Positions 7,717 through 25,262 of a DNA stretch of 25,262 nucleotides are shown piece by piece (position 1 is the stretch's first letter; each line of letters starts with the position of its first letter). This DNA is from a virus (Duplodnaviria; Caudoviricetes): IMG/VR virus record IMGVR_UViG_3300044454_000244, positions 1 through 25,262 of that record, one strand, 5' to 3'. Under the pieces are notes generated by a model, which saw only the letters and a program-made list of their open reading frames with translations, had not been told where the DNA came from and ran no database searches. A program made the translations under genes and the position numbers.

Positions 7717-7743
7717 GAATGCTCCGAAATTCCCTCGTCGAGG

Positions 7744-7797
7744 TTGCGCGGCAGGCCGGGAGGGGCCGGCTTTTCGGTGGCGACCCTAGCCGCGCAA
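7744..7797 (-). ncRNA. Candidate small three-way-junction RNA element in the 5' leader of the MTase-GT9 gene
   Basis: Minus strand: UUGCGCGGC-UAG-GGU(CGCC)ACC-GAAAA-GCCGG(CCCCUC)CCGGC-CU-GCCGCGCAA, i.e. a perfect 9-bp closing stem with two internal hairpins. Confidence 0.5.
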
Positions 7798-15757: not shown

Positions 15758-18604
15758 CTAGCGCACCCGGTAGGCCCAAAGAGAGTTGTTTCCAGGTAGC
15801 GGCGGATATTGCCCGCTCGAACTGGTGCGCGGCGATGTCGTGATTCCCATCAACACCTCTCCGCTATCGGGCAGAGCGACCCAGCTCGACGCGGAAAAGT
15901 TCTGCGCCGGAGCATCCGTGCAAAGCGAAAACCTGCGGGTGTCCTGATCGAATACTGCGACCTTGGTCCCGGTGAAGTTACCTGGGCCGCCGGTATTGAT
16001 GACGCCATCGTATGAACAGATCAGCACGACCTTGCGATCGACGGCGACCACCCCGCAGTGCTCTTGCCATTTCGCGGTGGCGAAGATGCCATTGTCTCCC
16101 GCCTCTTCCCACTCGCCGAGCGGCCAATGGCCGAGTGTGACGCCGTCGTCCAGCAGCCATTGTCCCGGCGACAGCGAGAAGGGTAGGTCGTAGATCTCGA
16201 AATTCGCCGCGGTCTCGGGAATATTTCCCCCGTTAGCCACGGCAAGCGCATTCTTCACATTGATGCGGACCATCACACTGCGTCGCTTGCCGCTCACGGA
16301 TTCGCGGACGCGGCCAATGAAGTAACACCAATCGTCAACGTTGGCAACGTAAGAGGTCGAGCAGTCCCACAGGCTGTAGACCAGCGTCGTTGGAAACTTG
16401 CGGTACTCGTAGGTAACGCCCGCGGGCTTGAAGATGACGATGGCTTGCGTGTCGGAACAGGCGCCGACGATCACATCGTTCGCGACGTTGCGGCCCCATG
16501 AACCGAGTCGCTCATTGGCGTAAACGCTCTCCAGCCGCCCTCCGTTGTAATTCCACCCGCCTGCGACCGACTTTGGCGCGACAAATGCGTTCGAGGACTC
16601 GAGCGTCCACGTTCCGGCGCCGCCGTTGGCGCTGGGCGTCCACGACCAGGTCCCCGACGGTTCATTGGGCGCCGGGCCATAGAGAGTGCCGGTGGCCCAT
16701 TCGTCCTGCCCGTAGAGGTTGTACCCACGGACGATGCTGGCGATCGCCCAAAACTTGCCCCGGACCTCGTCCCATACGAGAGATTGCTGGCAGTTGGTGG
16801 GTGGCCGAGTTTCGCGCGATCCGGACAGGTTGCGTGGCAGATACGGGTGCTCAAGTCGCCATGTTGCATCGCCAGCCGCATAGGGATCGATGGAATACAT
16901 GTCGTTTCGATACGACGAGTCCATCGTGTACGACTGCGCCCCGCTCGGCGCGTTGGTGGTGAAGCTGGCGCCCGAGTTCACCTGGGCGTCGGTGCCTGCG
17001 CCGCCGTCGTAGCTGAACGGCGAGTTGTAGCAGGAAAAGTCACCGCCCCACGTGTAGATGCGCTTCTTCACGGGGTGGTAGGCCCAAAAAACATGCTTCC
17101 CGGCGTTGTAGTCCGGCTGATCTGCCGAATATGTGTCGATGAATGGGTTGTTCGAGGCCGTCATCGGAATTTGCCGCCAGCGGTTGCCCGCCGACGGCGT
17201 CTCGAAGCCGATTCGGTGCCATCTCACTGAGGCCGCAGCGGACGGCGCGGTTTCCGGCCACCCCCCGCGGAAGTAGATTCCGTCGAGGTCGGGGTGGTAG
17301 TCGCCGTAAACGCTGATGTGGGGAATGAAGCCGGCCGGAGTGATGTTGACCCAGGCGGTCGGACTAGCCAGGTCATAGCGCTGCACGCTCGACCCGACGA
17401 ACACGAGGCAATTGCGCCGCGAGTCGTACTTCATCAGCTTGTAGTAGTACGGCTGGTCGCCGCTGTCGCTCAGCGTTCCGGGCATCTGGGTCGCGGTGGT
17501 GGGGTCGCGAACGTCGAGGCGCCACAGCTGATTGCCCGGATAGGCGAGCATGTAAACGTATGGGCCCACCGCGGCGATACAGTTGCGCAACTGATGCTGC
17601 CCCCCAGGCATCGAGGCGGGCCATGACACCTCAGTAATGCTGAACTTCTGCGGTCCGCCAGGCTTGCGCGCCATGATGAAGTGGCGCTTGTCCTGCTCCG
17701 CATTCCCGCTGCCAGAGGCTTCGATGCCCGCCCTCAAATATCCCACGTCCAACGCCGGACACCATATGGCCGCGGCGTTGTAATACCAGCCGGACGAACC
17801 GCCAAACCAGTACTGAACGGAGGAATTGCCGTCAACGTATTCGTTCCACACCGCCGTGCCACTGGCGATCGGCGCCCGGTTGCTATAAAGCCAGCCGGCC
17901 TCTGGCCTTGTGCCGGCGTCGTAACCAACAGTCAGGTCATAGACGCAGATACCACCATGGCCAAATTGGACGAAGGCATTCTCGGACGGGATGTAAATCT
18001 GAGGCCGATTGTCTTGCTGCGAGTAGTAGTACGAAATGTTGTCGTCGGATGCGGCAGTCTGCCAGTCCATCGTGGTGGGAAAGCGCTCCCACCCGATGAA
18101 AGCTGCGCGCGTCGTACCAGTGGCATCGTTCTTCGGCACCGGATAGGGATTGAACCCACGCACGTGATTGTCGGTCTCGGTGTGGTCCCCGGTGTTCGCG
18201 CCGATAAACATGCCCTCATTCGTTAGCAAGGCAGCCCCATAGTGAAGAACACTAGGGTTGCTTGGAGTCGATCCGACTCCGCCCGCATATGAATCGACGT
18301 CGGTTCCGATATTCGTAACGAACGACGTAGCCGACGAAGAGACCGCCAACGAGGCCCCACTATAGGCACCGGCGATCGCAGCGCCGGTTAGGCGCAACCC
18401 GCGCAGCAATGCCGCTGTCGCCTGCGCGCTCGCCACCGAACCACCGGCAAGGTTCAATCCTTTCAGCAGCGCCGCCGCCCCGACGGCACGCCCGGTGGCG
18501 TCTCCGGCGAGCTGGTTCAGCCCGGCGACGCCGACGTTTCCATCGATGGCGAGAATGCTGGAGAGACGCAGGCGGACGGGCCCGCGTAACTTGAATTCAG
18601 GCAT
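15758..18604 (-). CDS. Large putative receptor-binding protein: three 20-aa repeats then probable beta-propeller regions, 948 aa
   Basis: Repeats at about 18338-18517; blade-like motifs LWRLD, MKYDSRRNCLVFVG, YHPVKKRIYTWGG, LVWDEVRGKFW and VFDQDTRRF; W/Y/G-rich. Confidence 0.75.
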   Translation of the reverse strand: MPEFKLRGPVRLRLSSILAIDGNVGVAGLNQLAGDATGRAVGAAALLKGLNLAGGSVASAQATAALLRGLRLTGAAIAGAYSGASLAVSSSATSFVTNIGTDVDSYAGGVGSTPSNPSVLHYGAALLTNEGMFIGANTGDHTETDNHVRGFNPYPVPKNDATGTTRAAFIGWERFPTTMDWQTAASDDNISYYYSQQDNRPQIYIPSENAFVQFGHGGICVYDLTVGYDAGTRPEAGWLYSNRAPIASGTAVWNEYVDGNSSVQYWFGGSSGWYYNAAAIWCPALDVGYLRAGIEASGSGNAEQDKRHFIMARKPGGPQKFSITEVSWPASMPGGQHQLRNCIAAVGPYVYMLAYPGNQLWRLDVRDPTTATQMPGTLSDSGDQPYYYKLMKYDSRRNCLVFVGSSVQRYDLASPTAWVNITPAGFIPHISVYGDYHPDLDGIYFRGGWPETAPSAAASVRWHRIGFETPSAGNRWRQIPMTASNNPFIDTYSADQPDYNAGKHVFWAYHPVKKRIYTWGGDFSCYNSPFSYDGGAGTDAQVNSGASFTTNAPSGAQSYTMDSSYRNDMYSIDPYAAGDATWRLEHPYLPRNLSGSRETRPPTNCQQSLVWDEVRGKFWAIASIVRGYNLYGQDEWATGTLYGPAPNEPSGTWSWTPSANGGAGTWTLESSNAFVAPKSVAGGWNYNGGRLESVYANERLGSWGRNVANDVIVGACSDTQAIVIFKPAGVTYEYRKFPTTLVYSLWDCSTSYVANVDDWCYFIGRVRESVSGKRRSVMVRINVKNALAVANGGNIPETAANFEIYDLPFSLSPGQWLLDDGVTLGHWPLGEWEEAGDNGIFATAKWQEHCGVVAVDRKVVLICSYDGVINTGGPGNFTGTKVAVFDQDTRRFSLCTDAPAQNFSASSWVALPDSGEVLMGITTSPRTSSSGQYPPLPGNNSLWAYRVR

Positions 18605-22471: not shown

Positions 22472-23245
22472 TCATCGGACGTCGCGAGCAGCCAGGCGCG
22501 CGGCACTGGCGTCGTAGGCGCGGTCGAACTCGCGCTGCAGATGCTCGGCCTGGACGCGGCGTCCGATGTCGAACAACCGAAGTCGAGTCCGGTAGGCGGG
22601 CTTGCCCACTACGATCTTGAGCACCATCTCAGTCGTCCACCCTCCGCTGCTCCGCGTGCGGCGATAGATGCCACGCGGCAGCCCGCCGCCCGGACGCGGA
22701 ACGAAATACGTTCCTCGCTTTGCGACCGTGCGCCGGCTGCGCGCGCTGTCAGTCTTGTTGGACGAGTAACCCTGCCCTGCGCTGCCCGATGCTTTCAGCT
22801 GCGAAAGTATGGTGCGCACGATGCCGACGGGGAGGTTGCCATTGGCATCGAGGGGCATCGCTTTTGCAGGTACCGTGAACTCGTTCGAGCGCAGCGCACC
22901 TACCCTCAGCAATGCTGTCTCGTAGGCCTTACGGCCGCGCGCTACCCCAAAGACCTCGGGGTAGAGATAGTGGCTATCCCTCGTCTGGGGCCCTCCAGGT
23001 CTATCCTTGAGCCAGACGGAGGCAGCGAGCCGATCCTTGTCTGCCGGCTGCAGATAGGTGGAGTTCAGTGCCCACCGCGTCGGTCTGTCGAATACTCTGC
23101 CGATTTCCTTGACCACTTCGCCCTGGGCGATCTTCGCGGTGCGAGTCAGCGCCGTCGCAATCGTGCTGCGGTAGCGTCGGTCGCTGAAGCCGTCCAGCAA
23201 CGATCGCAACCCGCGCAGATCGACGTCTGTCTTGATCGTCAGCAT
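22472..23245 (-). CDS. Basic phage protein, probable tail-completion (gpZ-like), 257 aa
   Basis: ALTRTA...VFDRPTRWALNS motif; Arg-rich. No gene lies between the gpFII-like and gpU-like genes, where gpZ normally sits. Confidence 0.6.
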   Translation of the reverse strand: MLTIKTDVDLRGLRSLLDGFSDRRYRSTIATALTRTAKIAQGEVVKEIGRVFDRPTRWALNSTYLQPADKDRLAASVWLKDRPGGPQTRDSHYLYPEVFGVARGRKAYETALLRVGALRSNEFTVPAKAMPLDANGNLPVGIVRTILSQLKASGSAGQGYSSNKTDSARSRRTVAKRGTYFVPRPGGGLPRGIYRRTRSSGGWTTEMVLKIVVGKPAYRTRLRLFDIGRRVQAEHLQREFDRAYDASAARLAARDVR

Positions 23246-23246
23246 C

Positions 23247-23278
23247 GGAAAGAACCGCCCCGCAGGCGGGCGGGGCGG
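23247..23278 (-). terminator. tR'-like intrinsic terminator in the late leader
   Basis: CCGCCCCGC-CCGCCT-GCGGGGCGG followed by TTCTTT, just before the first late gene and downstream of the Q-like gene. Confidence 0.7.
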
Positions 23279-23355
23279 CAGGCGGAGGAGAGTCGACGGC
23301 TTCGCAGCGTTGCGGGTGCAGCTCTGCCAAGCCTGCTAGATTCAAACACAGAATC

Positions 23356-23377
23356 GGAAAGTCTCGAAATTCTTTCC
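23356..23377. promoter_or_regulatory. Inverted repeat in the putative late promoter region
   Basis: GGAAAG-N10-CTTTCC in an AT-richer patch immediately after the Q-like stop. No clear -10/-35 could be assigned. Confidence 0.4.
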
Positions 23378-23378
23378 A

Positions 23379-23768
23379 CTATCTCGGCACGGGTGCCAAC
23401 GAGCTCCGTGCGGCTTGAGCCTTGGCGTCTCTCGCCTGGTGCCACTGATTCAGCCTCAAGTCAGCGTGGCATAGACGGCTGTGCAAGGTCCGCTCGCTGA
23501 TGTGCAATCGGCAGGCGATCCCCGCCCTGCTGTTTCCGATCCCATCGAGGTAGCTGGCGCGTACGGCCGCTTTCAGCTGCGGCGGGAGTGCGGCGACGGC
23601 CTGGTCCGTGAGGATGGCCTCGTCGTTGATTTCCGGGGTCAGCGTGCCCCACTGCACGGCGCAGTCGACGCGCTCGAGGTAGATCGATGGCCTCGATCCG
23701 CCGGGCGCCGTGAAGACCCATAGCGCCCAGCGATTGAGGCGCTCATGCCAGTAGGAACTGCGCTGCAT
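23379..23768 (-). CDS. Antiterminator Q-like / late transcription regulator, 129 aa
   Basis: Start ATG 23768 (TGATG overlap). RLNRWALW, TDQAVAALP...Y and C-terminal HTH IACRLHISERTLHSRL; position before the late operon. Confidence 0.78.
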   Translation of the reverse strand: MQRSSYWHERLNRWALWVFTAPGGSRPSIYLERVDCAVQWGTLTPEINDEAILTDQAVAALPPQLKAAVRASYLDGIGNSRAGIACRLHISERTLHSRLCHADLRLNQWHQARDAKAQAARSSLAPVPR

Positions 23769-24016
23769 CAGTCGCCCACCCGTTGCCAGCGATCCGCGCG
23801 GATGACCTCGATCGGCTCGGGAGGCATTGGAGGTGGAGTTCCGATCTGCTGACCGCCCTCCTCTGCATAGAACCGGTGTGGCCATCCACGCAGCCCGGCT
23901 CGAATCGAGGCGTTGATCCCGTCCTCCCCGAACGCCTGCCGAAGGTCATCCACAAAAGCGGCCGTGAGGGGCATGCGATCGCGCAAATTGATTCTCGACT
24001 CGTTCTTTTCGGTCAT
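23768..24016 (-). CDS. Phage hypothetical protein, 82 aa
   Basis: MP.TAAFVDDLR.AFG...FYA.EGG..IGT; coupled to the Q-like gene. Confidence 0.75.
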   Translation of the reverse strand: MTEKNESRINLRDRMPLTAAFVDDLRQAFGEDGINASIRAGLRGWPHRFYAEEGGQQIGTPPPMPPEPIEVIRADRWQRVGD

Positions 24017-24026
24017 CTTTAAGTCC

Positions 24027-24276
24027 CGTCGCCAAGGGCCCCCCCTCCCCCCGTGAAAAACTCACGCGAGAAGGATCGTCGCCGTTAATCGCTCCACCAT
24101 GAACGCCTGCGCGTTCCCCCGGCCGTGGAGTCAAGGCCAGCCGCTCGAACGTTTGTGCTTGCGCACGGGAATTGCACCCCGTCGAGTACCGATTCACAGC
24201 CTCGGTTGGACTGGTCTTTTCTGCCGGGCGGGCGATGCAACCCCACGGACTCTGAGCGCGGCGGGCTCGGCTCGCG
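24027..24276 (-). ncRNA. Candidate highly structured ~250-nt RNA ending in a G6AG7 tract
   Basis: About twelve nested helices found by hand, many needing G-U pairs that form only on the minus strand; GCAA loops. It fills almost the whole gap between the TAA at 24277 and the ATG at 24016. Confidence 0.7.
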
Positions 24277-24441
24277 TTAGGTCATGGGTGCCTTCCAGTT
24301 GAGTACGGGGGCCACGATCGGCTTCCGCTTGAGGGAGGCCATCGATCTCGCCTTGGCCTTGCCGCCGCTGGAGTGGTGGCGGTGGAGGACCACCGACTGG
24401 CCGGGGCCCTTCCTCCCCTTGAAGTTCACCGGAGCAGTCAT
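24277..24441 (-). CDS. Small basic protein, 54 aa
   Basis: ATG 24441 overlaps the upstream stop (ATGA): MTAPVNFKGRKGPG...GGKAKARSMASLKRKP...WKAPMT. Confidence 0.55.
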   Translation of the reverse strand: MTAPVNFKGRKGPGQSVVLHRHHSSGGKAKARSMASLKRKPIVAPVLNWKAPMT

Positions 24442-24899
24442 GCGTGGAACTCGGACCCGAGCACAGCCCGAGCCCACAGGAGAATGTGCTGCGGCACGTA
24501 GTGGCCAAAACGGTGGCGATCGCGCTGCCTCATGGCCAGGGTGCGCGGAGAAATTGGTGGGCGATTGCCCATGCGTTCGAACAGTTCGACCAGCTGGCGC
24601 GCTATGTCATCCGGCATCGGTACGCCCCCTGCGGGGTCGGCCTCGCGCGTCTCGGCCTGCTGTGCGCGTCGCCGTGCGGCATACGCATCGCTGGCGCGCG
24701 TGACAATTTCGTCGATCGTCGGCATGCCCTTGGCCGTTGCCATCCAGTGCTCGAAGGCGTCGACCACGACATCGATGGGCAGCGCCTTGCATTTGCGCAG
24801 CCAGACCTTGACCGCAAGCTCGCTCGGAGCCTTGCGTCCGAAGAAGCTCGCGCATTCGGTGAGCGCGCCCTCGAGCGCGCGGATGTCGTAGATATTCAT
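24438..24899 (-). CDS. Putative helicase loader/inhibitor-like replication protein (lambda P position), 153 aa
   Basis: VW...LP...VVDAF..W....GMPTIDEI pattern resembling phage loader N-domains; coupled to the upstream replication gene. Confidence 0.6.
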   Translation of the reverse strand: MNIYDIRALEGALTECASFFGRKAPSELAVKVWLRKCKALPIDVVVDAFEHWMATAKGMPTIDEIVTRASDAYAARRRAQQAETREADPAGGVPMPDDIARQLVELFERMGNRPPISPRTLAMRQRDRHRFGHYVPQHILLWARAVLGSEFHA

Positions 24900-25216
24900 G
24901 CGAATGCCTCGGCGAGGCGGGCGAGGCGTGCTTCGGCATCCGCGCCAAAGCCGGGGAGCTCGTCCTCCCAGCGCCGACCGTTGAGCCAGGTCGAGGCATG
25001 CGGGATGCGCTCTGGATCACGCTCCGCCTGCCGCCAATAATTCACGTGAGCCTCGATGGCGGCGAGTGCCAGGGCGCGTTCCGGTGGCGGCAACTTGCGC
25101 CAGGCCTTGATGGCAGCCATGCGCGCAACCCGCCGCGGATAGAGCTTCCAGAAGGATTCGAACTCCGCTGGCGCCGGTTGGCGCACGCCAGGGAACAAGC
25201 GAACCTGAGCCGTCAC
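24896..25216 (-). CDS. Short replication protein resembling the C-terminal domain of phage initiators, 106 aa
   Basis: FESFWKLYPRRV.R..A.KAW.KL and IPHASTWLNGRRWEDE motifs; GTG start with AGGAGG SD and a GTGA overlap. Confidence 0.75.
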   Translation of the reverse strand: MTAQVRLFPGVRQPAPAEFESFWKLYPRRVARMAAIKAWRKLPPPERALALAAIEAHVNYWRQAERDPERIPHASTWLNGRRWEDELPGFGADAEARLARLAEAFA

Positions 25217-25262
25217 GCCACCTCCTGAAGTCGCATTGCGTCGATTCGATGGACTACGGGAT
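25213..25262 (-). CDS. 3' end of an upstream gene (partial)
   Basis: Open frame ...PVVHRIDAMRLQEVA* whose TGA overlaps the next GTG; only 50 nt are visible. Confidence 0.4.
   Translation of the reverse strand, partial: PVVHRIDAMRLQEVA

Follow-up and report, generated by a model that had tools for sequence, protein, structure and literature searches.

Introduction

Replication of ColE1 plasmids centres on RNA II, in which a G-run and a C-stretch take part in forming the persistent RNA-DNA hybrid. ColE1 has a dedicated promoter 550 nt upstream and control by RNA I, and encodes no initiator; in phage lambda, the origin lies inside the O gene (PMC5043065, PMC5703827). A sequence-only reading of the phage DNA studied here had likened a tract in it to human mitochondrial CSB II, of which G6AG7 is indeed the commonest human form (PMC5027508). 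According to that source, termination at CSB II depends also on a downstream T-tract, located ~16–23 nt downstream, which fixes and boosts termination and sets the 3′ ends. The hybrid quadruplex of CSB II, which links the RNA with the non-template strand, makes the primer harder to use in vitro (PMC3488243).

The window, meaning the entire stretch of DNA analysed here, is the whole 25,262-nt virus record of a lambda-like tailed phage, which is uncultured, derives from sediment metagenomes and is ~68% complete. Here we describe its G6AG7 tract, compare it with the systems above and with a recurring element found in other phages, and weigh what the tract may do.

Results

Gene neighbourhood of the tract

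Minus-strand genes of the window include those for the GpA terminase, portal, protease-capsid, tail and tape measure. Followed along the transcript, its right end encodes the 106-aa initiator-like protein, the 153-aa loader-like protein, ~420 nt without a supported gene, the 82-aa protein, the Q-like protein, a minor tail protein and terS (Table 1). The 153-aa protein has a 74% relative in Logan, four of the eight strain variants in the 82-aa gene are synonymous, and the Q-like role is suggested by the position of that gene before the late genes.

Table 1 Features of the tract and its surroundings, with positions in the window
Feature	Position	Strand	Basis or remark
106-aa initiator-like protein	24896..25216	-	phrog_270 positions 173-252 of 383, E 5.9e-18
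153-aa putative helicase loader/inhibitor	24438..24899	-	weak phrog_2289 match, E 0.0046
Direct repeat (15 nt, 87%) of the tract with CCC	24404..24418	-	368 nt upstream of the tract
Block, likely non-coding, common to two co-occurring strains	24024..24322	-	loose ends in X1 and X3
Predicted multi-hairpin core	24082..24200	-	MFE = centroid, frequency 0.23, z only -1.09
Pyrimidine anti-strand UCCUUCUC	24068..24075	-	predicted to pair with G3-G10, U opposite the tract's A
Inner hairpin of 5 bp, stacked against the tract	24052..24066	-	predicted; loop 24061-24057
G6AG7 tract	24039..24052	-	plus strand C7-T-C6
Short downstream hairpin	24024..24038	-	predicted; would mask the SD-like GGGA (24027-24024) ahead of the 82-aa gene
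82-aa gene, widespread phage family	23768..24016	-	461 relatives at E<=0.001
Q-like protein, sigma70 region-4 HTH	23379..23768	-	PF08281, E 7.8e-07

This arrangement resembles the lambda O/P module, as genes for an initiator-like and then a loader-like protein precede the Q-like gene and the GpA terminase, but differs from it in two respects: iterons were not seen in the window, and the similarity of the initiator-like ORF to phage replication initiators is confined to their C-terminal part, the ORF having its own Shine-Dalgarno sequence (AGGAGG, 4 nt before GTG). The nearest Atlas clusters to the 106-aa protein are viral proteins of 92–128 aa, and the ORF appears to encode a C-terminal domain on its own; at its N-terminus it carries QVRLF, which we take to resemble a sliding-clamp motif. 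Because the ORF is apparently C-terminal only, the default expectation of an origin inside O is removed within the window. However, since the incomplete record is cut 46 nt upstream of this gene, a conventional origin may lie outside it. The complete phage MW202674 has the same short C-terminal-only protein, and its annotation lists no primase, helicase or polymerase; we examined it for the tract-hairpin and found none, so that a coupling of C-terminal-only initiators to the G6AG7 element, looked for in this phage, was not found.

Two further features of the window were recorded. An int-alpA RNA (RF02996, 53.9 bits, above the gathering score) lies at 7732–7796 on the minus strand, directly after the capsid gene and before a 515-aa methyltransferase/glycosyltransferase-like ORF. 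A 948-aa ORF without a PHROGs match and with lower G+C occupies 15758–18604 (minus strand), between the terminase and portal modules.

Sequence and rarity of the tract

The run C7-T-C6 on the plus strand, giving G6AG7 in the transcript, was confirmed at 24039–24052. It is the single match to G6AG7 in the window at up to two mismatches, lies on the strand of the flanking genes, is separated by 22 nt from the ATG that starts the 82-aa gene and forms the top G4Hunter-type window of the contig. Dinucleotide shuffling yielded a G>=6/x/G>=6 run in 2 of 1000 cases and a G>=5/x/G>=5 run in 84 of 1000. Related phage DNA is richer in such G-runs than the shuffles, as G5xG5 runs number 19 over 428 kb of loci from related phages, duplicates included (~1 per 23 kb), and exact G6AG7 is estimated to occur in ~1600 IMG/VR stretches. 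The score of the 15-nt upstream repeat of the tract was reached by 3 of 200 shuffles.

The phage tract is identical over 14 nt to that of human CSB II and likewise stands on the non-template strand, and a 2-tier quadruplex is predicted in the phage RNA if quadruplexes are allowed. By contrast, the phage lacks a downstream poly-T tract (the longest T-run in the following 40 nt is 2), would be transcribed by a multi-subunit host polymerase rather than one of the POLRMT/T7 type, has a competing upstream anti-strand facing its tract, and shows no dedicated promoter. Specifically, no sigma70-like promoter was found in 23000–25262, although GC-rich hosts may use a weaker consensus, and no promoter-like site lies within 340 nt of the tract. 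Downstream of the tract the G-skew is 0.02, that is, none.

A shared block ending in the tract

The tract lies at the end of a ~300-nt block between the loader-like gene and the 82-aa gene, ~285 nt long up to the tract. Strain variants were drawn from three runs, in which the strains are 94–99% alike. In run X1, the sequences of two about equally abundant strains (by depth) part ways upstream of 24322, and the 15-nt repeat lies beyond this point of divergence of the second strain. The variants together with this divergence define 24322–24024 as a shared, likely non-coding block, and the divergence suggests a module-exchange boundary at its 5′ edge. Variant-strain contigs reaching across the tract (X1 record 1, X2 record 7) leave it unchanged, and a variant at 24068, which turns C into U in the RNA anti-strand, keeps its pair as G-U; the strains are too close for proof of selection.

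The block is likely non-coding. A frame of 111 codons spanning the tract is not taken to be a gene, because the variants bring a stop and mostly non-synonymous changes, and a 54-aa ORF at 24277–24441 was rejected likewise, having no relative and an earlier stop in the loose end of the second strain. No homologs of the upstream 250 nt were found in phages by blastn, or in viral contigs, GTDB genomes or metagenomes. Pattern scans for the block returned a single, unrelated match in viral contigs (L003), eight matches in GTDB genomes, none of them homologous upstream, and one chance 27-nt match in 401 genomes of one order. A blastn search against 72,556 plasmids gave no match (best E 0.4).

In its outline the block is like ColE1 RNA II, being the source of a potential RNA of a few hundred nucleotides with alternative pairings that ends at a G-rich site, and having an upstream repeat of the G-run. 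It differs in lacking similarity to RNA II or RNA I (no Rfam match, no plasmid match), in that its own promoter and an antisense RNA I were not found, and in the initiator-like and loader-like genes beside it, as ColE1 encodes no initiator (PMC5043065).

Predicted hairpin and RNA folding

Folding predictions bear out the earlier proposal that the tract can be sequestered by CCUUCUC (24074–24068), with a pairing probability of ~1.0 per base for G3–G8. The 35-nt hairpin, when tightly cut, has a z of −3.99; a hairpin of like grade arose in 89 of 1000 trials in which the 50 nt upstream were shuffled, and with 107 of 2000 random 50-mers of the window. Once quadruplexes are allowed in the folding, a 2-tier quadruplex is predicted to beat the hairpin, so that two states are computable. 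As to the proposed switch, the predictions put it firmly on the paired side unless the 2-tier quadruplex is allowed.

The premise that the tract ends a structured RNA gained little support: 24014–24280 has a z of 0.30, no better than shuffles, and its best-defined part, the core, reaches −1.09 (Table 1). The core is predicted to contain GCAA-tetraloop and T-loop-like hairpins. Neither the block nor the core matches Rfam, and tRNA remnants and a group I intron, both suggested by eye, gave no RF00005 or RF00028 match.

The pairing uses G-U wobble and is predicted at −18 kcal/mol, against −8.4 on the other strand. This argues against a DNA-level signal unrelated to RNA, such as a packaging or cos-adjacent site or a protein-binding G-tract, as does the location of the tract 1.7 kb, two genes, upstream of terS. 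Similar G-rich tracts near terminase-side regions in several sampled loci, which we presume to be cos-type, are in favour of such a signal, which we regard as highly improbable.

The downstream hairpin bears on another explanation, in which the RNA would be a leader that switches the 82-aa and Q-like genes. The anti-strand would hold G1–G10 while the CCC hairpin covers the SD-like GGGA, and release of the tract would either free GGGA or alter polymerase pausing before the Q-like gene. The 22-nt spacing, which rules out the tract itself as the Shine-Dalgarno sequence of the 82-aa gene, would suit such a leader, as would the predicted pairing of the first two bases of GGGA (0.7–0.9) and the overlap of the 82-aa stop with the Q-like start. 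However, two strain variants fall in the 3′ strand of this hairpin, one of them breaking a pair, relatives carry the same gene without such a leader, and a ligand, leader peptide or antisense partner was not found. We consider the leader switch unlikely, though clearly less so than the DNA-level signal.

A recurring phage element ending in G6AG7

An IMG/VR scan for G6AG7 revealed, among 121 sampled sites, a subset with one common layout: promoter, structured RNA, pyrimidine anti-strand, inner hairpin and G6AG7, all non-coding. Most of the sampled sites are of other kinds. A second class (L095, L104, L131, L161 and L202) lies antisense within long ORFs that have purine/pyrimidine-skewed repeats, one of these ORFs being an initiator gene (L095). 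A targeted scan returned 109 viral loci, 63 of them distinct; members fall into groups A (13), B (6), C (6), D (5) and E (2) and singles, and stand alongside ~20 unrelated matches. A sigma70-like promoter is typically found 80–300 nt upstream, and 19 of 28 members score at least 9 on a promoter score that is uncontrolled. Upstream helices covary with two-sided changes at 12 of 84 pairs in group C and 8 of 86 in group D. At 12 of 17 pairs the anti-strand varies between C and U against an invariant G, which indicates that the pairing is single-stranded and strand-specific; here the whole-structure shuffle control was exceeded no more than modestly (8–17 of 500).

In group A, an upstream copy of the tract plus its tail changes together with the downstream copy. 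Re-annealing of the 5′ RNA with the template at this site would produce such a pattern, and ColE1 provides the analogy. In L221, L228, L238, L119, L136 and other group A and B loci, the promoter-driven RNA is ~75–110 nt long and repeats the G-tract plus tail at its 5′ end, with concerted changes in both copies; if any R-loop here targets its own source, these loci are the likeliest to form it.

The tract is single-copy in nine of nine element records searched, and many or most members stand at divergent strand switches. GC skew in five whole element-bearing phage records is inconsistent as evidence for an origin: a minimum coincides with the element in one or two, with minima at or near it in G403 and G405, where they coincide with coding-strand switches, no switch in G406 and the opposite sign in G408. 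G408 encodes a full-length initiator and DnaB, and in G406 no initiator, primase or helicase appeared in 31 of 46 ORFs scanned at E<=1e-12, a search too strict and partial to count.

The element gave no Rfam match with 20 loci searched and no match among annotated phages, and our literature search found no description of it. The tract was not found in six supplementary files of PMC10690425, although that catalogue may hold the element.

The window compared with the element

The window shares with the element a pyrimidine strand, a purine bulge, an inner stem, AY-G6AG7 and a non-coding setting, and does so in the same register, with U opposite the tract's A, then four pyrimidines, a purine and C. 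It fits the pattern of AY-G6AG6-7, a U-Y4-R-C anti-strand and a stacked inner stem, shares CCTTCTCGC with L286, and its block of ~285 nt has the length found in groups C and D. An AY before the tract occurs in 14 of 16 element sites, which were picked by eye, against 3 of 100 other G6AG7 sites; the window's own prefix, AC, taken alone, occurs in 1 of 16 against 2 of 100. The window's pattern was found in none of 401 genomes of one order (centred on Comamonadaceae; reversed control 1), against 109 viral stretches.

Only 9 tract bases are predicted to pair in the window, against 11–13 in all 14 representatives, its upstream folding z is +0.4 against at most −1.0 in 13 of 14, it has neither a promoter nor upstream sequence homology, and it lies within an operon, as does L286, rather than at a divergent strand switch like most members. 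A covariance model, trained on AT-richer members and with groups C and D and most singles held out, gave the window 12.2 bits (E 0.22), against 19.6–47.1 for 14 members; this is in the range of unrelated G6AG7 sites, and some non-members reach 24. With the full model the window scored 16.7 bits, 29th of 78 matches. The upstream hairpin descriptor passes 13 of 110 G6AG7 sites, eight mirrored controls and 5–9% of random 50-mers. Given nine paired bases, no folding signal, no promoter and low model scores, we have not filed the window as a member. It is one of the weakest candidates for the element, and homology or a true analogy to it falls a little short of an even chance.

The same data bear on whether the tract is an incidental G-run in a spacer poorly constrained after a replication-module swap, with a hairpin arising by chance from a 14-nt purine tract. 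The frequency of G5xG5 runs in related loci, the prevalence of other kinds among the sampled G6AG7 sites, the chance rate of the hairpin, a region that folds like shuffles, a model score in the noise and strains too alike to reveal selection are all consistent with it. Against it, the tract, the anti-strand register, the AC prefix and the non-coding context coincide, and two strains keep the block yet diverge just upstream, which recombination explains equally. An incidental run is somewhat unlikely in itself and nearly as likely as a gated R-loop seed.

The slot upstream of the 82-aa gene

Conservation of the tract in homologous loci, which the sequence-only reading had put forward as a check, did not hold: in the viral loci compared, no exact G6AG7 lies within 330 nt upstream of the 82-aa relatives, and one relative has a shorter G4AG4 there. 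Instead, of 68 distinct viral loci with enough flank, 51 carry 8-mer repeats in at least three copies shortly before the 82-aa gene, against two in the downstream control. They are direct as well as inverted and phage-specific in sequence, and in loci L007–L084 they appear as 8–9-mer repeats with an RY-rich stretch 20–260 nt upstream of the gene. The window's block has no such iteron-like repeats. Among the 35 of 82 loci with full flank scanned for helicases, the upstream ORFs are VapE/DUF5906 (SF3) helicases in 30, and one more has AAA_25. By analogy the repeats may be origins, and repeats behind VapE/DUF5906 helicase genes are likely a conserved origin layout. The tract is not conserved with the 82-aa gene, yet it occupies this presumptive origin slot.

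It had been proposed that the locus is a transcription-primed replication origin. Spelled out for this locus, the ~300-nt RNA would form a persistent hybrid at the tract and be processed into a primer for the leading strand, with the C-terminal-only initiator and the loader assisting. The slot itself, the block free of iteron-like repeats, the 15-nt upstream repeat and the existence of a recurring element with the same anti-strand/G6AG7 ending are consistent with this proposal, and the initiator apparently lacks the N-terminal portion, where lambda O contains its origin (PMC5043065 places the lambda origin within O). The absence of G6AG7 upstream of the 82-aa relatives counts in part against the proposal. 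So do the truncated record, beyond which a conventional origin may lie, MW202674 with the same protein and no tract-hairpin, the full-length initiator and DnaB of the element-bearing G408, and the noise-level score of the window on held-out element models. Moreover, a promoter, antisense RNA, U-run, G-skew and plasmid or phage homolog were all not found, the proposed region 24000–25216 consists mostly of two protein genes, and the hybrid quadruplex of CSB II blocks primer use in vitro instead of favouring it (PMC3488243). We judge such an origin improbable, more so than the leader switch.

Discussion

Our preferred reading, held tentatively, is that the tract is a hairpin-gated, element-like G-tract that seeds an R-loop or a pause. 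An early transcript would run through the ~300-nt block, with G6AG7 at its end, and CCUUCUC would lock the tract into a strand-specific RNA hairpin. Were this pairing pre-empted, the free G-run could re-hybridise with the C-rich template or join the non-template G-strand, and might seed a short R-loop, so that RNA polymerase stalls beside the replication genes. The data establish the sequence, strand and position of the tract, its non-coding setting and a recurring phage element that ends in the same 3′ architecture, whereas transcription through the block, folding, gating and R-loop formation are inferred; the tract may act like those of the recurring phage element, CSB II and ColE1, by analogy with each, and we file it under none. 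That the R-loop primes or activates replication would be a further and less likely step.

A bolder extension of the hairpin-gated reading holds that the iteron origin of the relatives has been replaced by a ~300-nt RNA with a gated G6AG7 of mitochondrial type, that the C-terminal-only initiator and the loader would convert the R-loop into a fork, and that the window stands at the margin of an uncatalogued but widespread family of phage R-loop origins; we give this little credence.

The recurring element, with its promoter, covarying RNA, G6AG7 hairpin and the concerted repeats of group A, is better supported than the window. If the R-loop origin were true, the 14-nt signal of the human mitochondrial origin would also serve phages, there under the control of an RNA off-switch, and R-loop priming at G-tracts could be studied in a small bacterial system.
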